Shown: positions 5,715 to 38,448 of the stretch, piece after piece
Numbering within the stretch: position 1 is the first letter of the stretch
How the letters are laid out: each line of letters starts with the position of its first letter
Origin: a virus
Taxonomy: Duplodnaviria > Caudoviricetes
Length of the DNA: 64,000 nucleotides
Virus record (IMG/VR): IMGVR_UViG_2913820460_000006
Coordinates: 18,803 to 82,802 of that record
Strand: one strand, 5' to 3'
The notes under the pieces: generated by a model
Seen by the model: the letters and a program-made list of their open reading frames with translations, nothing else
Told to the model about the DNA's origin: nothing
Database searches by the model: none
Program-made: the position numbers and the translations under genes

Positions 5715-7811
5715 TTATATTGTAGCTGCTGAAACAGCTTTTTTCTTTTTGATAACAAATCGTCCGATACGAAGCACAATCTTTGGAATTTCCATTTCAA
5801 AGAAACATATATGCAAGCCTATGGCTCTTGTCATTAGCAAGTCATCATGTTTACCGGTAATCGCTCCGAAAGCTCCGTTCGGTTTTTTCTCGTAACACAA
5901 ATATTCGTCCAGGCAACGTTCGTCACGTTCTGTGTATAAATTCTCACGAATAACCTTGACTAAGGTTGATATAATCATTGGTTTGGTTGAGACATTGGTA
6001 TGGAAGCCGTATTTGGTAGGCAATCCCTCGCGTACGGCTTCTTCGGACTGACCACGTGCATAGAGATTAGGGTAAATCTCTTTGATTTGATTAAGGATGA
6101 ACTGTGACTGGTCGCCATCTACCTGCCGCTCCTTGTCATGCGTTTCCAAGGTGTTGCTTTCTATCACCAAGAGTGAATTGTCATAAAAAGCCGCTATTTG
6201 TGCCGCTTTCCACGCAAGCTGGTCGATGTCGCAATGTCCGTACCATTGTGCCACTACGACAGGCTTGCCACCATCAATCATAAACAGACGGTCAAGCACA
6301 AGAACAACAGAGAAGTCTGCTTTATTGGAGCGTCCACCCACATCGACAATCGTGAGGTAACGATTTGTAACAACTTCCTTTTCATCTGTTTCCGGCAACT
6401 CCCAAATATGCAACAATCCCTGTTTGTCTTTCACAAAACGCAAGTTCTGCAAAGCGTTCTTGCCCTCATCCGCATCGGCACAGACTTCACCGACATATTT
6501 AGGTTTCTTGCAGGTCTTACGCATTGCATCGACCTTGTATTTGTCGAACACACGTGCTCCCGAATGTACGAAGGCTTCCACATCATCAGACGGAAATTCG
6601 GCAGCCATCTGCCCATGGTCATTGTACTTCCTGCGTTCGGCTATGTACCAATGGATAGCTTCGAGCGTAGCACCTTTTTCCCACAGCGACCAAAGATACT
6701 TACCGCATTCCTCACGTTCGGAATCTGTATTTTCATTGTCCCGATTCTGATAAAGCCATTCTGCAAAATCCCATTTTTCTTTGTCCGAATCAAAAGCGAG
6801 TGTATATTGCTCGATGTCGAACCATGAAACGAACATTGCCTCGAACTGGGATTTCCCTTCTTTTGCGGCAGTATATTCGCGATGAAAGAAGTTCCCGGTG
6901 CCATTTGCTGTGCTTTCATAAACAATCATGGTGTAGGGCTTGAGGAGAATACCCGAACAGGCGGAGCGCACAATGTCTTCCGGTTTCTTTCCCTCCGTAG
7001 CCTTCCATATTCCCACTTCGGAGAGATGTACAAGATTGTAATCACCGCCACGACACGAATCCGGGCGTTCAGCCGTACCAATCTTGATTTTGCAGTTACG
7101 CTGCGGAATACGCGATATACTTCCCGATTTTCCCACTCCTACAATCTTCGGCTCGTTCTCATTGTAGGCTTCATCAATTTTATAGAGCATTTCGACAGGA
7201 TAACTTTTAATCATCCGGTCGAACATATCCTTGATTTCATCGGAGCCTGCGCCCTGATGTGCAATGATAAGTGAGTTTAAGCCGGTTTTGTGAAGCAGCT
7301 GCAACCATGCCATATAAAGCTGTGAAGTGGTGGAACCACCCCATTGCCGTGCTTTAAGCAGGATGATGCGTATCGGTTTCCCTGCAATACGCAATTTCTC
7401 AAGCCGATCCACAAAACGCCGTTGAGGTCTTGTCAGACGAAACAGGACATCCTCACCGCCGCCTTTGGCCTTGATATAGACAAATGTTGCCGCCCAAAAC
7501 GGAAAATCCTCGCGGCTGCGTATTCGTACAAACTGCTCTATGACCTTCAAGCGATCATCCTGATTGTCTTCCACGCCCATGTAGTCCGTGAGAAATTTGG
7601 AAATAGAACCGGCTTCGATGAGTTGGCGTACAAGCGGCACTTTCATGATACGTTCCGGTAACCACTGGGTATGTATAGGAAAGTCACTGATGGTACACTT
7701 TACACGTTTACCGACAGAACCTTCTCCGGTAATTGGATTGAACTTTGCATATACAATCGCATTGCGGCGTTCATTCTCTGTCAATATGTCCTTGATGGCC
7801 TTATCTTTCAT
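5715..7811 (-). CDS. terL: Terminase large subunit
   Basis: Walker A-like ILLKARQWGGSTT, Walker B-like LVHLSE, ESTANG motif, nuclease acidic motifs IVDVGG and HDDLLM. Confidence 0.93.
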   Translation of the reverse strand: MKDKAIKDILTENERRNAIVYAKFNPITGEGSVGKRVKCTISDFPIHTQWLPERIMKVPLVRQLIEAGSISKFLTDYMGVEDNQDDRLKVIEQFVRIRSREDFPFWAATFVYIKAKGGGEDVLFRLTRPQRRFVDRLEKLRIAGKPIRIILLKARQWGGSTTSQLYMAWLQLLHKTGLNSLIIAHQGAGSDEIKDMFDRMIKSYPVEMLYKIDEAYNENEPKIVGVGKSGSISRIPQRNCKIKIGTAERPDSCRGGDYNLVHLSEVGIWKATEGKKPEDIVRSACSGILLKPYTMIVYESTANGTGNFFHREYTAAKEGKSQFEAMFVSWFDIEQYTLAFDSDKEKWDFAEWLYQNRDNENTDSEREECGKYLWSLWEKGATLEAIHWYIAERRKYNDHGQMAAEFPSDDVEAFVHSGARVFDKYKVDAMRKTCKKPKYVGEVCADADEGKNALQNLRFVKDKQGLLHIWELPETDEKEVVTNRYLTIVDVGGRSNKADFSVVLVLDRLFMIDGGKPVVVAQWYGHCDIDQLAWKAAQIAAFYDNSLLVIESNTLETHDKERQVDGDQSQFILNQIKEIYPNLYARGQSEEAVREGLPTKYGFHTNVSTKPMIISTLVKVIRENLYTERDERCLDEYLCYEKKPNGAFGAITGKHDDLLMTRAIGLHICFFEMEIPKIVLRIGRFVIKKKKAVSAATI

Positions 7812-18300: not shown

Positions 18301-20273
18301 AGGTTACAAAAATATTCGTGAATGAATGTCCGTATATTGATACGATGACTCTGTTGGAACAGGTGGTCAATGCAAGTGAATTGAAAACCGTCCGTATTCC
18401 CAACGTAAATGCTACGGCGAGTGTTGAAATGCTTCGTTCCATAAAAAACGGTGGGGCTATAGGATTGGATGCGAATGGTAATGCGTACGATGAAAAAGGA
18501 CAGTGTAGCGGAATAACCGGACGATGGATATTGGTCGAACTGATAGAGCAGAACGAAATCGAAGAGCTTGTCCGGTATTTTCCCCAACTTGAACTTCATA
18601 ATTCGCAGTTCTCTATTGTGAAAATCAGCGATACGGTAGACAATGATTCGTGTGAGAAGTATAGCAATCCCGAAAATAAGACGGGGGCGGATTATGGCAA
18701 CACATATATTCCAAGCGGGCATACCCTTGCCATCAAGAAAGGATGCCATGCCTATAAATGCTCATTCAACACGAAGAAAAACCAGATGGAAGGCGTGCAG
18801 TTAAGCGATACGGATTTCAACTACCTGAAAAACGGCAGCAGCTTTGACATAACGGACACCGCCGGAGAGGGCTTTGATATATTCTGGCATGCTCCGCACC
18901 ATTGGTACAAGGGAGTGAACGACTACAAGAACCAAGTAAAGTATTTTTTCCCTTCTATAACAGAGACCGAACCGCTCTCAACTGCATTGCATAGCAGAAA
19001 ATCCCTGTTGTCGGAATTGCTATATATGGAAAATACCGGAGTGTATGCGATTGATGCCGTTGTCGGTGAAGTCATAGGCGAGGATGTCATAACCACCGCA
19101 TCCAATACGAACAGCTACAAGATGGATGTGAGAGGAATGAAGCAGGTAAGATGGCCCGGTCTGAACCATGCCCGGCTTGGAGGCGTGTTCACTGACGAAA
19201 ACAACCGTGTGCTCAGTACGTTCATCATGTCTGTAAGCCATACCTATTTTGACTTCAACATCGGTGATTATGTGTTCTGTGACATACCTAACGGTGCAAA
19301 ATGGTTTTATTTCACTTCTTTCCGTGACATTGGCGACATAGAGTGCCTTGTTGTAGACAGCAGCAGTATTGAAGCCATAGAACCTGAATGGACCGAACAC
19401 ACGGTTGGCGACAACGACAGTCTGGTCGGTGTATATCCTATTACCGTTGACGGTTTGAAGATGCCACGCAGCCTTTCCGGTGATATACGTTCGAAGAAAG
19501 GCAACGGGACGTCCGTTACATCTAACGAATGGAAATACGACAGTGAGGGTAATCCTATTGAGATGCCTATCGGCGGTTTGAATTACACGGCAAAGGATTT
19601 CCAAAACATCTGCCGCTTACGTGGAGTTGGCTATCAGTTGCAGGATTACGAACAGCATAAAGAGATTAGCAATCTATGGTGGGCTTTGAGCGGAACAACC
19701 AACGAACAGTCGGTTGTGGGCAATGGCGGACATGACAGCATTCTGAATAAACTGGATTCCATTGGCATGGCTGACAGCAATAATACCGGCAATACGCTCA
19801 ACTCCATACTTGGATTGAAGCATTATGTGGGTTGTGATTCAGAATGGATGGACTATATCGCTTTTAATGTGCCGAGCTATGAAGCGTTCTACAAGGCAAA
19901 ATGCACGGAGAACGACAGTTCATATCCAATAGATTATACAGCGCATATTTATGACCCCGTAAACAAAACCGAACGGACTGTTAAAACAGTTGACGCTTCC
20001 AATGGAAATTGTGTCGTGCGCATAGTACATGGTGCCAAGTGCGATGTATTGCCCAGCAGAGTACACAAGGGAGATACAAGTATGTATGTAACACATTATG
20101 CAGCAGGATTTTGGATAAGTGGAAGCCGAGGCCGTTGTGTTTTGCGGTCCGGCAGCTACTCGTCTGCGAACAGCGGTCTCGCTTTTGCGGGCGCGAGCTG
20201 CGCTTCTTCGTACTCGAGCACGTACTGCGGGGCGCGTCTGGCCTTCCGCGGAAAATTCGTTATAATTGAATAG
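12336..20273 (+). CDS. Giant tail fibre/receptor-binding protein, DGR target
   Basis: 2645 aa: N-terminal coiled coil, two tandem ~70-aa repeats, a ConA/LamG-like region, a CotH-kinase-like region, leucine-rich repeats and a C-terminal CLec/FGE-type domain ending in the VR (...GARLAFRGK). Confidence 0.85.
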   Translation: MSYESKHIDGDVSVGRNTAIGGDATVQGKTHLKGNVMVDGWLEAKNIKGVSKGLFTTIEKLKAAYPLPHDGWWALVGVSLPAPIYVGDGGEWVPTGQSGGNPTIDSGQYNEAVEKLQEDITKLQDDITDIEARNKAQDTNLTTLGDSVNSLQDQVNTTKDTANKANNKANEVGSQLNSFKESKGENGGIAPLDEQGKVPSRHLPGYIDDVVDFYGISVGITVKNESIDKNSNDEGCKVVYDKEHGCFVLAYVPTIGESETATYYNNWLDADVFGTASTNGRIPSSGKVFLCEEDGKSYRWSGKQLTSIGSDLALGHTSSTAFPGDEGAKLQEDMKQVEENKKAILSLNKQVVSRSVVNVNHLFDLSDREITFSVALDRCATSEYASALQIPGVVLIFLTEAGWVSKQWTNTSDWSKESNWTDFGTSGGGNVGNTINVNDLCGDGEYTLGTAIKAVVDLEKESGFSYLKSGIVLTFKTAESDKNGAPVWLAYQFTRDKSDISPDDLKPWVAFGSGGSKVETSDKPAEGGKDALSTGGAYIMQEKAIGGFDEESDEDYIYYKATNLNGGQIEDIVLKIPKNGGGGGSSEDSTLSIYFEEAAPIMAFGSEIKINVALRSVSYPDGNEVLGVIRNITIIDASTGLTLSSEDMNTVGSASATDYKFELDFTSYFSSAASKSFFVQATDSDGNTKKKAITIMAVDITVEQPMALNYTSDTILVAGGPAKNIGQFYKFPNNTSSILAVVEMFYNGEWKKLGEATVSDSYTKGISVNPTNVFGGGERLSHGAYPVRIYGTEKKSGVKGNTIYSAIMCVDENSNTPIVAIRFNDKNNGTLRLYDNLTVEVAAYTPGKTETHVDVFYSEEKVTAVEAMIAETVTVNKQISGYSTDGSQSITVHAESGGVSTNEIKVTIKGSAIDIAIKDGALFGYDFSTRSNSESDHTITHNGVTMDVRGANWSSNGFVDFLKERSLRIAENVTAEVLDYHPFGNASVETTSGCAIQFAFATKNIKEADSKLIECYDPDSGAGFYVCGNKAAIYCKTGQPALVERSFRQGEKITMAVVVEPSTIYVSRGGSNYSCIKLYLNGEEVGCIGYISNSGAILNSKTITFDGTEGDLYLYYVLAYNSHYEWAQAFRNYLCKLTDTSAMIQEYEAENVLDTQNRPTIEALSAKGIPYYVVVSDQQTFDTFDGDIDTSKKFKCTLFYYHPTMPWRSFKAINVQWRRQGTTSAKRPIKNDRFYLQKNDGWEVTPIYPDYDSEDAQISYKLMKIGYVRVGEDSIPVKIITVKVDYSDSSNANDCGVCGLMNATFRALGSNYLTPAQRSFDGTWAKSDISLKGLEMNHSTANHPIAAFRATQESLTDAWFHAKGNWKEDKGEQVALGFKDTPGYNKGCVNYGDFVEYFGQNGESLDQIETRFKNDITTDKEKLYLLSLYCGQDYRFMSYERGEWTRQAGEMKQENGKWKITGKVLNPVSGYELLTYDGMNWWQGVGSVEDMMEPTTAESSWVTKLKLGQDTYPMWTRYFECMIDDDQLQIDLAMGRKVPYDLYQVLKFCDSCDYAKEELAGKWQEIWKTEMWKYINPYSLVSYYLFTDYLAAVDQQAKNMQPMFFLEDGCSVKDGVYSGANGMEARRMYLNKVYDCDTCNGKDNDGGQTIDPEVDPGDLTNSAYAGRGSVLWNDIRGQQTMDVDQNANTITLPAIADTMRSLPDTLGIGAGPFSPKGADYYFVKQIMKKWPKVVSSYDGERKYIKYTGYNDLYFYALQGLGLTSLPAFIEQRWRIRDGYYRCGDFKAESGYIGGRIGAKEGAVIRFKAAKSGYFGIGNDSGNITQGIFLKAGESGTFTDFQHGENIMLYIYQADRMSMIDLSEVSIDPQFGNTLSKMSLLQELYLGSENHKEWKMSPGNTGFLTNLDLGDMPFLTTLDIRNTEIITVNCSKCPRMESVHADNTSLSAITFAETSPISTLALPGTITELVLNNLPNLTYPGGLSLGGVSKVTKIFVNECPYIDTMTLLEQVVNASELKTVRIPNVNATASVEMLRSIKNGGAIGLDANGNAYDEKGQCSGITGRWILVELIEQNEIEELVRYFPQLELHNSQFSIVKISDTVDNDSCEKYSNPENKTGADYGNTYIPSGHTLAIKKGCHAYKCSFNTKKNQMEGVQLSDTDFNYLKNGSSFDITDTAGEGFDIFWHAPHHWYKGVNDYKNQVKYFFPSITETEPLSTALHSRKSLLSELLYMENTGVYAIDAVVGEVIGEDVITTASNTNSYKMDVRGMKQVRWPGLNHARLGGVFTDENNRVLSTFIMSVSHTYFDFNIGDYVFCDIPNGAKWFYFTSFRDIGDIECLVVDSSSIEAIEPEWTEHTVGDNDSLVGVYPITVDGLKMPRSLSGDIRSKKGNGTSVTSNEWKYDSEGNPIEMPIGGLNYTAKDFQNICRLRGVGYQLQDYEQHKEISNLWWALSGTTNEQSVVGNGGHDSILNKLDSIGMADSNNTGNTLNSILGLKHYVGCDSEWMDYIAFNVPSYEAFYKAKCTENDSSYPIDYTAHIYDPVNKTERTVKTVDASNGNCVVRIVHGAKCDVLPSRVHKGDTSMYVTHYAAGFWISGSRGRCVLRSGSYSSANSGLAFAGASCASSYSSTYCGARLAFRGKFVIIE
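20131..20240 (+). repeat. DGR variable repeat (VR)
   Basis: 110-bp copy of 21143-21252 with 15 substitutions, all opposite TR adenines; encodes the C-terminal residues of the fibre. Confidence 0.97.
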
Positions 20274-34174: not shown

Positions 34175-35047
34175 TTATTCACAAAGCCCATAGTAGCTCA
34201 TACAACTTGTTGCCACATCATCGTCGAACAGAGAACCACCTGCACGTTTACTTTGTACATAACGAACAACATCGCTGATTAGAGGATATTCACCCTTATA
34301 ATACTTAGATGAAATTTTATCAGGACCGAAAAAACTGCTGTTGAACTGTTGTTCGAGACCTGCAATGTAGCTTATCCTTTCTGGCTCTTGTACGCTGATA
34401 TTGTAAATGTCTTGTTGTGAAGCCATCACGCAAGGAAAGCAACCAACACGTTTGTAGCCCATTCGGTAGAGAGGATTAGGCTGTATTCCATTTTCAAGTA
34501 TATAGTCAATCACTTGTTGTGCCGACCAATCGAATACCGGACGCAATAGGTCATCAGCATATTTCTTTCGAAATGCCAATACATCTTTGCGACGATAGGT
34601 GTGGTACTTGTCCTTACCATTCTTATCCTTACCGTATGGCTGCACATAATACTTGAAGTACGTACATTGCTTGGACATTTCGGCACGCTTGGCACTCTCG
34701 GCAGCACGTATTCCTTGTATAATCAGAACATCATCGTTTACTTCATCGAGTATGTAGTCAATCATCGGAATGGTTTTCAATTCAGATGTGCAGAATCTCC
34801 GTTGCGAGGATGGCCAGCGTGATTTCTTTTTTGTCAAATCTACCATACCGTTAAACTTCTTTGACTTGACGGTAATGAGATTTAAGCCAAGTTGTTCCTG
34901 TACTTCTTCGATATATTTATAGGTCAATGGGTGTTCCCAACCTGTATCACAAAATACTGTAATAAAATCTTTTGTTAGGTTATTACGCACCCAAAGAAGT
35001 GATGCAAGACTATCTTTGCCACCACTGAATGAAACTATTACTTTCAT
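34175..35047 (-). CDS. Phosphoadenosine phosphosulfate (PAPS) reductase-family protein
   Basis: SFSGGKDS PP-loop, CDTGWEH, RRFCTSELK, GIRAAES and RVGCFPC. Confidence 0.9.
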   Translation of the reverse strand: MKVIVSFSGGKDSLASLLWVRNNLTKDFITVFCDTGWEHPLTYKYIEEVQEQLGLNLITVKSKKFNGMVDLTKKKSRWPSSQRRFCTSELKTIPMIDYILDEVNDDVLIIQGIRAAESAKRAEMSKQCTYFKYYVQPYGKDKNGKDKYHTYRRKDVLAFRKKYADDLLRPVFDWSAQQVIDYILENGIQPNPLYRMGYKRVGCFPCVMASQQDIYNISVQEPERISYIAGLEQQFNSSFFGPDKISSKYYKGEYPLISDVVRYVQSKRAGGSLFDDDVATSCMSYYGLCE

Positions 35048-35486: not shown

Positions 35487-36809
35487 TTATTGATTATAAG
35501 TTTCTTGAATAGCTTGGAATATCTCATACATTACTTGTGGGACAATCGCATTGCCATATGCCTTTATCGATTCCTGCCGCCACTTTGAAAAGGCAATACC
35601 GTCCAATCTGGTGGAAATCCCATCATCTCGGCTACAAACAGGGGATTGAGTTGGGAAGTTTTTCCACCGTTCTGCGAATGATGCTCTCCTAACATTACCG
35701 GCAGGTTGCACAGAGCATCCGTCCTCATTTTCCCATTTTTTCTTTTCAATGCTTGTGGGGAAACGGAGGGTTGATAGTCCCTCGCTGCTGGAGTAGGGAG
35801 CATCCCATTCACCGCCATTGCTGTCAAAGCTGTGCCCATTTGACTGTTCGGATTGTATTTCTTGCTGTACTTGTCCGCTTCCCGGGCATTGGGAGTAGGA
35901 AGCAACCGAACCATTCTCGCAAGTCCTACGCTTCCGTTCTGTCCGTTCTGATTGATTCTCCTCGGAGTCCCGTTTCTGGTCGTAACAAATTGGTCGTTCT
36001 TTCCAATTATCGCTCCGGTTGTTGCATCGCTCGCCATCGGAGTGGGAAGAAGCCCGAACGCAGCCCCTGACGAAAGGTTGTTGAGTTTCGTACCCGTTCT
36101 GTCTTTCGTTCTCGCAGCAGCTTTCATGGGGTGTTCCACCACTTCCACGGCACGTGGTGTCGGAAGCAGTCCTACCGGATAGAATGTTGTCTTCCCATTT
36201 TCGTTGCATACCTTTAACCCCTGCGTCTGCACGGTGGGCAATAAAGAAGACACGGTCTCTTCTGTGCGGCGCTCCGACGGCACAAGCCGGAATAACAACC
36301 GGTTGGACGAAATATCCTTCACGTTCAAGGTCGTTACACACTGTTTCGACAACGTATTCCTGCCGATGCAATATTCTTTTTCGGTCAACCTCTCCGAACA
36401 GAGATTCTTCACGTCCCAACGCAGTTTCACTGCCGGGTTGTACCATTGAGAGGATTCCAGCAACGTTTTCACCAACAACCCAATCGGGCTGAATCTCCCG
36501 TATCGCTCGTAGCATTTCCGGCCAGAGGTAGCGGTCATCTTCCGCTCCCTTTCGCTGTCCGGCGCAAGAAAAAGGCTGGCAGGGAAAACCTCCGGTGAGG
36601 ACATTGATTTTTCCACGCCACTCTGTAAAATTTGTTTTCGTGATGTCTTCATAACTTTTGCTGTTTGGGAACCAATAATCAAGTATTTTTCTCCCGAACG
36701 GGTTTATTTCACAATGGAACATATTTTTCCAGCCCATTTCCTCGGCAGCTATTTCCGGACCACCGATGCCGCTGAACAAACTACCATGGGTAAACTTATT
36801 CTTTTCCAT
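35487..36809 (-). CDS. DNA cytosine-5 methyltransferase, catalytic (alpha-like) polypeptide
   Basis: Motif I FSGIGG, IV GFPCQ, VI ENV, VIII HRRDR and X GNAIVP; no clear motif IX in this frame. Confidence 0.9.
   Translation of the reverse strand: MEKNKFTHGSLFSGIGGPEIAAEEMGWKNMFHCEINPFGRKILDYWFPNSKSYEDITKTNFTEWRGKINVLTGGFPCQPFSCAGQRKGAEDDRYLWPEMLRAIREIQPDWVVGENVAGILSMVQPGSETALGREESLFGEVDRKRILHRQEYVVETVCNDLEREGYFVQPVVIPACAVGAPHRRDRVFFIAHRADAGVKGMQRKWEDNILSGRTASDTTCRGSGGTPHESCCENERQNGYETQQPFVRGCVRASSHSDGERCNNRSDNWKERPICYDQKRDSEENQSERTERKRRTCENGSVASYSQCPGSGQVQQEIQSEQSNGHSFDSNGGEWDAPYSSSEGLSTLRFPTSIEKKKWENEDGCSVQPAGNVRRASFAERWKNFPTQSPVCSRDDGISTRLDGIAFSKWRQESIKAYGNAIVPQVMYEIFQAIQETYNQ
35564..36682 (-). 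CDS. Nested alternative-frame ORF: probable methyltransferase beta subunit (TRD repeats plus motif IX)
   Basis: 372-codon open frame entirely inside the MTase gene on the same strand; five (L/M)LPT(P/V) repeats; C-terminal LNPLFVAEMMGFPPDWT is motif IX-like. The start may be the MSSPEV Met (~36604). Confidence 0.7.
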   Translation of the reverse strand: MIIGSQTAKVMKTSRKQILQSGVEKSMSSPEVFPASLFLAPDSERERKMTATSGRKCYERYGRFSPIGLLVKTLLESSQWYNPAVKLRWDVKNLCSERLTEKEYCIGRNTLSKQCVTTLNVKDISSNRLLFRLVPSERRTEETVSSLLPTVQTQGLKVCNENGKTTFYPVGLLPTPRAVEVVEHPMKAAARTKDRTGTKLNNLSSGAAFGLLPTPMASDATTGAIIGKNDQFVTTRNGTPRRINQNGQNGSVGLARMVRLLPTPNAREADKYSKKYNPNSQMGTALTAMAVNGMLPTPAARDYQPSVSPQALKRKNGKMRTDALCNLPVMLGEHHSQNGGKTSQLNPLFVAEMMGFPPDWTVLPFQSGGRNR

Positions 36810-36811
36810 GA

Positions 36812-37039
36812 TTACGGATTTTTTGTTTTTGCTACTTTAGTTGGTTCATAGTACTTGCATTTGTCTGTTCCCGGATTGTATGCTGGCCATACCCATTGCA
36901 AACGTGTATCGGGTGGATCGGGCAAATAGCGTTTACAACTCTTGCGGATTGAGCAGGTAACGCCCGAACAATAACTATAATCTGTATTCATCGTCATAAT
37001 GTTTTTAATTAGTTTACTGTTTTCTGAATGACTGCTCAT
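36812..37039 (-). CDS. Small Cys-rich protein
   Basis: YCSGVTCSIRKSCKRY...CKYY; the true start is probably an internal Met. Confidence 0.5.
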   Translation of the reverse strand: MSSHSENSKLIKNIMTMNTDYSYCSGVTCSIRKSCKRYLPDPPDTRLQWVWPAYNPGTDKCKYYEPTKVAKTKNP

Positions 37040-37757
37040 TGCCGAAATTGATGATTAGCATCATTTCACGGAAACGGTCTGCAATTCGTTCGTCGTAATA
37101 TTCTGCAATTTCTTTTGCCGTAAGATTGGATGAGACCAGCGTACAGAACTGCTCTTCATAGCGAAAAGACAGCATATCCATGGCGGCGGTTACGTAATCG
37201 CCATAATGAATGCTTTCTTTCGGTTCGGAGCCGAGTTCGTCGATTGCGAGTATTTCGATTTGGCGCAGCCTTTTGTAGCGTGCCACATCGGAGGTGTTGT
37301 CGCGTGTGGGATTGTTATACGCTTTAGCCAGCAAGACGAGTTCTTTAGCCGATACCATCATGTAGCCGCGTATCGGATATGCATCCGCATTGCTGTTATA
37401 CCCCTCATCAGAGCGCAAGTAGTTTATAAGGTTTTGCAATGCACGCAGAATGGTGGTTTTCCCATTTCCGGCATCGCCGCAAAGGAACAATCCGAAAGTG
37501 GAGGCTTCCGATGTAATCCAATTGGAAATGTCCCAAAGGTGCTTTTTGTATTGTTCGGTGGCATTAAATTCCCTATGCCTATGAGCAACTTCCACCCGGC
37601 ACGCTTCATATAGCATAGCGTAAACTTGCTTGGCGGTATATGGCAATCTAAAACGAGTTACCATATGTTTTCTCTTCATCAGATTTGAGAAGATTACCTC
37701 TGCGTTGATTTCTGCTTTCGGGTCTAACTTTATCATCTTTTCTTTTATTTTTATCAT
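37014..37757 (-). CDS. DnaC/IstB-like AAA+ ATPase (helicase loader)
   Basis: Walker A CGDAGNGKTT, Walker B ILAIDELG, SSNL...YYDERIADRFREM. Confidence 0.85.
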   Translation of the reverse strand: MIKIKEKMIKLDPKAEINAEVIFSNLMKRKHMVTRFRLPYTAKQVYAMLYEACRVEVAHRHREFNATEQYKKHLWDISNWITSEASTFGLFLCGDAGNGKTTILRALQNLINYLRSDEGYNSNADAYPIRGYMMVSAKELVLLAKAYNNPTRDNTSDVARYKRLRQIEILAIDELGSEPKESIHYGDYVTAAMDMLSFRYEEQFCTLVSSNLTAKEIAEYYDERIADRFREMMLIINFGNEQSFRKQ

Positions 37758-38448
37758 TTACAATTCTCAACCATGCGTTGAAGTGCTGTTTGGCATCCTG
37801 TAAGGAAGAATGCCGGTCTTTCCCGTCTGCCAGGCATTGCACCCGGAAGTCGTCAAGACTGCTGCGCAAAGAGGAAATATTCGTTGCATGAAGCACTTGT
37901 AATTGGTCAAGCCAACACTCGTCTTTTTTCAGTTCGGCAATTTCTTCATCGATAGTCATGGAGTAAGGCTCGTATTGCAGTTCGTTTTGCACTGTTGTAC
38001 TACCTTGTATCGTTTGTGGATTGTCATTCTTTCGTGGCAGTTTTTCAGTTTGTTTGGGCTTTCTTTTCTCGATTAGGTTATAATCCCCAATATAGCAAAC
38101 ACGACGGCACTGTACGCATATACGACTATACCTTTCCTGAATACCTTTAGAAGTCAATACTTTTTCAGCGTCAAACAATTCTTTTGAAAACAACCCCAGT
38201 GTCAGGCAGGTTTTGATTACTTCTGATATATATGCCTCCTCAAATCCCGTAAGCTCCGAGCAAATGAAAGGCAACTCTTTATCCCACTTCATATAATACC
38301 CACTCTTGTAGATATTGCAGAGCAGCAGAGCATATACCGTTATAGCTTTTCCACCTTGATACTTGATTAGTTTTCTTATTTTAAGGTCGTTAAATATATC
38401 TATATCCAGAGGGAAATAGTCAAGACCTTTTTTAAAAGTTCGTGCCAT
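37648..38448 (-). CDS. Phage replication initiator (DUF4373-like)
   Basis: KKGLDYFPLD...KIRKL...LTSKGIQERY; upstream of the loader ATPase. Confidence 0.75.
   Translation of the reverse strand: MARTFKKGLDYFPLDIDIFNDLKIRKLIKYQGGKAITVYALLLCNIYKSGYYMKWDKELPFICSELTGFEEAYISEVIKTCLTLGLFSKELFDAEKVLTSKGIQERYSRICVQCRRVCYIGDYNLIEKRKPKQTEKLPRKNDNPQTIQGSTTVQNELQYEPYSMTIDEEIAELKKDECWLDQLQVLHATNISSLRSSLDDFRVQCLADGKDRHSSLQDAKQHFNAWLRIVNDKNKRKDDKVRPESRNQRRGNLLKSDEEKTYGNSF

Follow-up and report, generated by a model that had tools for sequence, protein, structure and literature searches.

A candidate two-chain cytosine-5 methyltransferase encoded in two overlapping frames of a provirus, with its recognition-region modules in the nested gene

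The 64,000-nucleotide stretch of DNA analysed in this study (the window; positions 18,803 to 82,802 of IMGVR_UViG_2913820460_000006) is part of an 82.8-kb IMG/VR provirus record. It carries, on the minus strand within the phage replication module, a methyltransferase locus in which one gene lies wholly inside another. The outer gene, alpha (35487..36809; 440 amino acids [aa] and a stop codon), was assigned to the catalytic large-domain subunit of a C5 cytosine methyltransferase on the basis of its open reading frame (ORF) and its matches to PF00145, TIGR00675 and phrog_363. The inner gene, beta (35564..36652; 362 aa and a stop codon), is nested in alpha in the +1 frame and was assigned to the recognition subunit on the basis of its ORF, a conserved ATG and a match to phrog_1008. 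As listed, the inner ORF covers 35564..36682, +1 relative to the outer ORF, with 372 aa counted from a TTG. The alpha and beta frames are both open for about 1.1 kb of this 1.3-kb stretch, as had been noticed in an earlier reading made without database searches (the sequence-only reading).

Alpha scored above the cut-offs of Pfam PF00145 (1.7e-40, 139.9 bits, cut-off 22) and TIGR00675 dcm (114.1 bits, cut-off 100.65) and matched phrog_363 at 9e-68. Motif I, FSGIGG (aa 12-17; 36759..36776 on the minus strand, as for all features of the two genes), which serves S-adenosylmethionine (AdoMet) binding, was located from the translation and from (near-)invariant columns in the homologue alignment. 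Motif IV, GGFPCQPFS (aa 73-81; 36567..36593), holds the catalytic Cys77 within the invariant residues G74, F75, P76, C77 and Q78, and its bases double as codons for beta residues ~20-29. Motif VI, ENV (aa 114-116; 36462..36470), is invariant at E114, N115 and V116, and motif VIII, PHRRDRVFF (aa 181-189; 36243..36269), at P181, H182, R184 and R186. Motif X, YGNAIVPQV (aa 418-426; 35532..35558), is invariant at G419, N420, V423, P424 and Q425 and starts two codons past the beta stop codon. Motifs I (FxGxG), IV (PC), VI (ENV), VIII (QxRxR-like) and X (GNxV), which the sequence-only reading had listed by number for the outer frame, are thus all present in alpha, invariant across 38 homologues.

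A C5-methyltransferase is expected to carry a target-recognition region and motif IX between motifs VIII and X of the same chain, and alpha carries neither there. Between these motifs lies a polar linker (aa 196-375; 35685..36224), an out-of-frame reading of the beta modules, which was delimited by its divergence, its avoidance of stops and its low identity and occupancy in the alignment. Neither the protein alignment nor four-fold sites revealed constrained alpha sequence between motif VIII and the block preceding motif X. The modules resembling a target-recognition domain (TRD), together with motif IX, occupy the +1 frame.

Beta begins with an N-terminal domain (aa 1-136; 36245..36652) overprinted on alpha motifs IV-VIII, which was delimited by four-fold divergence and an AlphaFold2 model of a minimal homologue. 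Five modules follow (aa 137-331; 35660..36244), which were split at their anchors and compared by hhalign with the variable region of gp71 of Mycobacterium phage Martik. They span aa 137-161, 162-200, 201-249, 250-283 and 284-331, and each begins with (L/M)LPT(P/V). Behind them lies motif IX, LNPLFVAEMMGFPPDWT (aa 335-351; 35600..35650), in which L335-P347 and W350 are (near-)invariant and which aligned to LSAVFPEWMMGWPAGWVT of Martik gp71; the five anchors and the motif IX-like end that had been described for the inner frame are both present. Beta matched phrog_1008 ('DNA methyltransferase') with an E value of 1.9e-29 and 104 bits. Profile searches found no family for it in Pfam or NCBIfam, sequence and profile searches against solved structures returned chance matches only, and a search of the ESM Atlas returned only unnamed viral and Bacteroidota clusters.

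Martik gp71 is a C5-methyltransferase encoded in a single frame, with three LLPTPxAxD units followed by LSAVFPEWMMGWPAGWVT as motif IX and by GNGVVPQQ as motif X. When a profile of 38 betas was used, residues 158-352 aligned to residues 219-371 of Martik gp71 (hhalign probability 95.3%, E 2e-8). Because of this alignment to a single-chain enzyme, the C-terminal two-thirds of beta corresponds to a variable target-recognition region and the motif IX behind it. Nothing in Martik gp71 corresponds to the N-terminal domain of beta, which must have been written over the catalytic motifs of alpha.

The modules are not tandem repeats at the DNA level. No DNA tandem repeats were found in the module region besides short anchor-coding words: the 13-16 nucleotides (nt) that encode LLPTP are the sole recurring DNA, their spacing is irregular, and the sequences between anchors are unrelated from module to module. 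The tandem repeats claimed by the sequence-only reading thus reduce to these anchor words. Its proposal of an expandable array stood in so far as homologues carry from 1 to about 11 modules in many orders, but not in so far as expansion would need slippage-prone tandem DNA repeats, which are absent. Splitting 122 complete betas at their anchors yielded 444 modules (median 38 aa; 1-9 per protein), and a further count by eye gave about 11 modules in one beta (P0211). The module set comprised ~17 recurrent types, arranged in 87 architectures among the 122 betas. The head module LLPTVQTQGLK occupies the first or an early position but is not found at the end, a few terminal types adjoin motif IX, and the internal types are variable. 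The array in the window runs in the order head, one rare type, two common internal types and terminal type.

In a resampling test, the protein of one frame was kept fixed and synonymous codons were redrawn from the window's own usage in 3000 runs. With the beta protein kept, the redrawn sequences had an average of 24.9 alpha-frame stops and at least 12 in every run, whereas the real sequence has none; with the alpha protein kept, 8.6 stops were expected in the beta frame, and here too none was observed (P(0) about 3e-4). The third frame contained 23 stops against 21.6 expected. Joint openness of both frames by chance is excluded.

Selection was assessed from divergence at four-fold sites in 58 gene pairs threaded on protein alignments, with values given for pairs 40-80% identical; the pairs are not phylogenetically independent. 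Divergence at alpha four-fold sites was 0.70-0.72 (saturated) outside the overlap, 0.39 over the N-terminal 142 codons of beta and 0.24-0.36 over beta motif IX. At beta four-fold sites, it was 0.66-0.68, close to neutral, in the module region that coincides with the alpha linker and 0.27-0.30 over alpha motifs IV-VIII. These values indicate that both frames are coding and constrained in two segments of ~142 and ~39 codons, and both are under purifying selection in these overlaps. Alpha aa 196-375 is constrained only against stops and is otherwise neutral, which agrees with the earlier suspicion that the middle of the outer frame is a shadow of the inner one. Among 71 unique genes, the alpha linker showed 5 stops at 5787 at-risk beta codon junctions, compared to ~1392 expected, where an at-risk junction is one at which a preceding codon ending in T makes an alpha stop and the expectation is taken from the use of T at third positions elsewhere.

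The start of beta is also conserved. The beta ATG lies 39 codons ahead of a conserved T.TSG motif in nearly every locus and arises from a Tyr-Glu pair of alpha (TAT GAR). The Tyr codon that supplies it is TAT in all 60 of 60 genes, compared to 47% TAT elsewhere in alpha. As the window has this conserved ATG at 36652, beta is probably 362 aa long, rather than the 372 codons that the sequence-only reading had counted and that would start at the TTG at 36682.

Scanning IMG/VR with the beta alignment identified 80 loci, 77 of them with a recognisable motif IX. The alpha frame, one base upstream of beta, was open across the whole of beta in ~70 of the 77, and the third frame in the same loci was open for only 5-76 codons; wherever nesting was found elsewhere, beta was always at +1. 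The nested layout is present in Bacteroides phage BKO1-TP3, where only alpha is annotated, in Microcystis phage Mae-JY24 and in Paenibacillus phage Bloom, for which GenBank holds both coding sequences and in which a Shine-Dalgarno sequence, GGGAGGTG, lies about 10 nt upstream of the beta ATG. Minimal forms occur on plasmids of B. thuringiensis and B. tropicus (alpha 246/254 aa, beta 161/168 aa), and the RefSeq plasmids that carry them are annotated with alpha only. Isolate phage genomes with the same frame relationship came from four host phyla. Furthermore, a search of 1.84 billion representative proteins returned 1792 beta-related clusters (50% identity) at E <= 1e-10, many of which start at the same Met. 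The layout thus has a wide distribution among phages of Bacteroidota, Bacillota and cyanobacteria and mostly goes unannotated. A literature search found no paper presenting this phage methyltransferase family as two-frame; in a paper on Paenibacillus phage genomics, two genes for cytosine methyltransferases are listed with no remark on them.

Several variants of the locus were encountered. In one IMG/VR locus (L081), an HNH endonuclease ORF (2047-2439; 131 aa; PF01844, 1.1e-5) follows the beta stop codon in the beta frame, and the alpha gene (1230-2558; 443 aa) stays open across it in a lengthened linker, so that three proteins would be encoded in one stretch. In another (L067:1227-2843), alpha has one stop after motif VI and an in-frame insertion of HNH_3 and helix–turn–helix domains (PF13392, 7e-15) between the block preceding motif X and motif X itself; this insertion may represent a homing endonuclease that invaded the locus. 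The protein database also contains chimeras of ~414 aa in which the N-terminus of alpha is joined to the C-terminus of beta (P0001, P0009, P0048 and ~40 others), with the frame switching at at least 10 different points. The three that were checked, P0001, P0009 and P0048, each fit a one-base deletion, which is either a sequencing error or a real mutation. Because both frames are open, any insertion or deletion in this region gives a long ORF.

Considering the conservation of the layout across phyla, the selection on both frames, the neutral middle of alpha and the homology of the C-terminal part of beta to a TRD plus motif IX, we consider that the locus probably encodes a heterodimeric alpha/beta DNA cytosine-5 methyltransferase, produced from one mRNA read in two frames; the two-chain enzyme with a nested gene supplying motif IX that the sequence-only reading had put forward is thereby supported. 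We propose two initiation sites on this mRNA. Initiation at ATG 36809 would yield alpha, whose large domain (motifs I, IV, VI and VIII) would bind AdoMet and carry out catalysis; an unconstrained polar linker of ~180 aa, presumably a disordered tether, would come next, and then a C-terminal block with motif X that would fold back against the large domain. Initiation at the internal ATG 36652, in the +1 frame, would yield beta, with its N-terminal domain of ~136 aa, the five recognition-region modules and motif IX. Since alpha alone has neither a recognition region nor motif IX, activity would need both chains, and the need to reach motif X may be the reason why the alpha frame is held open through a stretch without meaning for alpha. 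The N-terminal domain of beta probably docks beta onto alpha, by analogy with the alpha/beta enzyme M.EcoHK31I, in which N-terminal deletions of beta weaken its association with alpha (PMC2836561).

Several observations weigh against this two-chain enzyme. Translation of both frames in the host and physical assembly of the chains are what we infer from the sequence. Three relatives (L039, L067 and L030) have a broken alpha frame, and in two others (L035 and L036) the first ~65 residues of alpha, including motif I, are fused in frame to beta and the remaining alpha has no start; this fusion may represent a natural frameshift variant common to both or else a gene without activity. Part of the resemblance between the N-termini of different betas inevitably follows from the conservation of alpha in the same bases. 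The AlphaFold2 model of the window beta alone (38-sequence alignment) had a mean predicted local distance difference test (pLDDT) score of 46.5 and was unusable, and that of the beta of a minimal homologue (L078; 101 sequences) reached a mean pLDDT of 64.6. In the latter model, the N-terminal domain was predicted with moderate confidence (pLDDT 73-81) as two helices and a long hairpin. For this model, Foldseek found no match in the PDB below E 0.56, and VIA-align against 48,161 chains gave none above Z 4.8, with generic helical matches only. The missing fold match of a predicted model does not establish the fold as either new or known.

How the modules work is a separate matter from whether both chains are made. 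The sequence-only reading had suggested that the repeats might be multiple or shuffled target-recognition units for evading several restriction systems. That two or more modules each function in recognition, giving a multispecific enzyme, is possible and falls somewhat short of an even chance. The fuller proposal, in which beta would be a swappable multispecific array of independent modules, 1 to about 11 in each protein and shuffled between phages, docking on one alpha, the two-frame layout would keep the subunits inseparable, and M.BatI of Bacillus anthracis would be an unrecognised single-module member, is offered tentatively and may well be wrong. If it were true, a phage could change or add specificities by module exchange with the catalytic gene untouched.

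Close to an even chance is given to the alternative that both chains are made and the modules combine into a composite DNA-binding region of one specificity, or are partly inactive pseudo-domains, with the number of modules tuning affinity or site length. The head module LLPTVQTQGLK does not vary, which speaks against multispecificity; it is also fixed in position, and a small set of terminal types adjoins motif IX, as a composite region would have it. When the alignment of betas was compared with MtbP, the multispecific enzyme of SPbeta, no similarity to its TRDs was detected (hhalign probability 0.1%, E 0.43), and M.BatI, the only characterised likely member of the family, would have one module and has one degenerate site. 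Internal modules, however, are freely gained, lost and reordered, as the spread of architectures and module numbers reveals, and a single interlocking fold would not easily tolerate such variation. Each module also has its own TL-like anchor, which fits a composite region poorly: in the multispecific C5-methyltransferases of Bacillus phages (SPR, phi3T and SPbeta MtbP), several short recognition units lie in tandem between motifs VIII and IX, and each of these tandem TRDs carries a TL-like anchor.

It is improbable that alpha by itself makes up a complete methyltransferase containing a disordered insertion and that beta has a separate job, such as that of a regulator or an anti-restriction factor. 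The lack of a Pfam or NCBIfam family for beta, and of a solved structure matching it by sequence or, through the minimal-homologue model, by fold, would suit such a separate role. Nothing is constrained in alpha from motif VIII to the block preceding motif X, however, and minimal alphas have only 246-254 aa; alpha also lacks motif IX, and homology links the C-terminal part of beta to the TRD and motif IX in a C5-methyltransferase of one chain.

Still less credible is a single polypeptide made by two programmed frameshifts, one of +1 behind motif VIII and one of -1 behind motif IX, although this would restore the canonical order of motifs I-VIII, TRD, IX and X, in which single-chain relatives exist. 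Such a mechanism needs no open alpha linker, no conserved beta ATG and no selection on the first 136 codons of beta, and all three were seen. Moreover, the beta ATG of phage Bloom is preceded by a Shine-Dalgarno sequence, and the database chimeras change frame at many points rather than at a single slippery site. That the gene is decaying, or that two compensating indels in a faulty assembly opened the second frame by accident, as the frequency of frameshifted variants in databases might suggest, is the least believable alternative of all, since the same frame relationship in ~70 independent contigs and in isolate phages of four host phyla rules out a compensating-indel pseudogene and the codon-resampling and stop-avoidance statistics exclude an accident.

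An overlap of ~1.1 kb on the same strand, with both frames under selection for ~180 codons, has consequences for annotation. The usual gene callers list only one gene here and overlook the chain that would set specificity, and predictions of methyltransferase specificity would thus be incomplete for many phages and prophages. The locus is also a clean natural case of overprinting, in which a new domain of ~136 aa shares its bases with the best-conserved motifs of an older enzyme, and it contains a long spacer reading frame maintained solely by stop avoidance. If the modules are independent recognition units, they would offer a phage a compact escape from several restriction systems. The two chains may furthermore serve as natural parts for split, targetable methyltransferases, a use already made of M.EcoHK31I.

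The genes around the locus comprise a VRR-NUC gene, a gene for a Lin1244-type replication protein, a DnaC-like ORF, a gene for a small zinc-ribbon protein and a gene resembling phosphoadenosine phosphosulfate (PAPS) reductase. The PAPS-reductase-like gene (PF01507, 1.5e-31; window 34175-35047, minus strand) lies just downstream of the methyltransferase. It has the same downstream position in Bacteroides phage BKO1-TP3 (L001 4565-5470) and Mycobacterium phage Martik (L083 1964-2367), so the pairing recurs across phyla. The DnaC-like and Lin1244/DUF7833 replication-protein ORFs (window 37014-37757 and 37648-38448, minus strand) overlap by 110 nt as listed, suggesting that one of the two starts is probably further downstream.

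Among known systems, the array pattern of beta resembles the tandem TRDs of the enzymes of SPR, phi3T and SPbeta, which are likewise phage enzymes, and SPbeta MtbP has an anchor of the P-T-L/P-T type (GLSPTLTT). These enzymes differ from that of the window in being single-chain and in having units that, in the MtbP comparison given above, are without detectable similarity to the beta modules.

M.BatI, from B. anthracis prophage LambdaBa01, methylated GCDGC when its gene was expressed in E. coli, and its authors, who treated it as a single small protein, noted a gene 20-30% smaller than is typical and proposed a new subclass (PMC8936443). In the published alignment, the annotated protein lacks a TRD and has practically no motif IX (PMC8936443); it resembles an alpha-like chain of ~250 aa without these elements, and its last 24 residues match the C-terminal end of the alpha encoded on the B. 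thuringiensis plasmid. A scan of reference genomes with a batIM pattern did not find B. anthracis itself and found one close homologue, in Bacillus multifaciens (L088), with an alpha of 251 aa (256-1011) and a nested ORF of 164 aa in the +1 frame (437-931). This nested beta has one LL(A/P)TP module (LLATPTTSQ) followed by INPQFVEWMMGLPQDWT and is 50-62% identical to translations found under annotated methyltransferase genes of Bacillus and Paenibacillus phages; the corresponding alpha is 38% identical to that of the window. The B. multifaciens alpha has GYRCQ in place of the catalytic GYPCQ, and this copy may therefore be inactive. Judging from the B. multifaciens homologue rather than from B. 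anthracis DNA, M.BatI is probably itself an alpha/beta enzyme whose beta was co-expressed unnoticed, and membership of an alpha/beta family would account for its appearing 20-30% too small. It would differ from the window enzyme in having one module instead of five and CxGxxG as motif I.

Martik gp71 shares with the window enzyme the same catalytic motifs, the LLPTPxAxD-type units with motif IX (xxFxEWMMGxPxxW) and then motif X behind them, and the PAPS-reductase-like neighbour. It differs in consisting of one chain read in one frame, with no counterpart of the N-terminal domain of beta.

The closest known system is M.EcoHK31I of E. coli HK31, which recognises YGGCCR and is an alpha/beta C5-methyltransferase that needs both chains and has its beta gene inside alpha in another frame (PMC2836561). 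According to the description in that paper, the two systems are alike in that the beta ORF lies wholly inside alpha on the same strand in another frame and in that alpha has motifs I-VIII together with X, beta having motif IX. The precedent drawn by the sequence-only reading thus holds for the split with a nested motif IX but not for the placement of the TRD, which in M.EcoHK31I lies in alpha, with the N-terminal part of beta needed for association with alpha (PMC2836561). Downstream Met codons were also able to rescue the beta of M.EcoHK31I (PMC2836561). There, alpha holds the TRD and beta supplies only motif IX, whereas here beta contains the five modules, the middle of alpha is a linker, and beta has an extra domain of ~136 aa overprinted on alpha motifs IV-VIII. 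The predicted enzyme of the window is M.EcoHK31I-like in its alpha/beta organization and differs in having its recognition region in beta.

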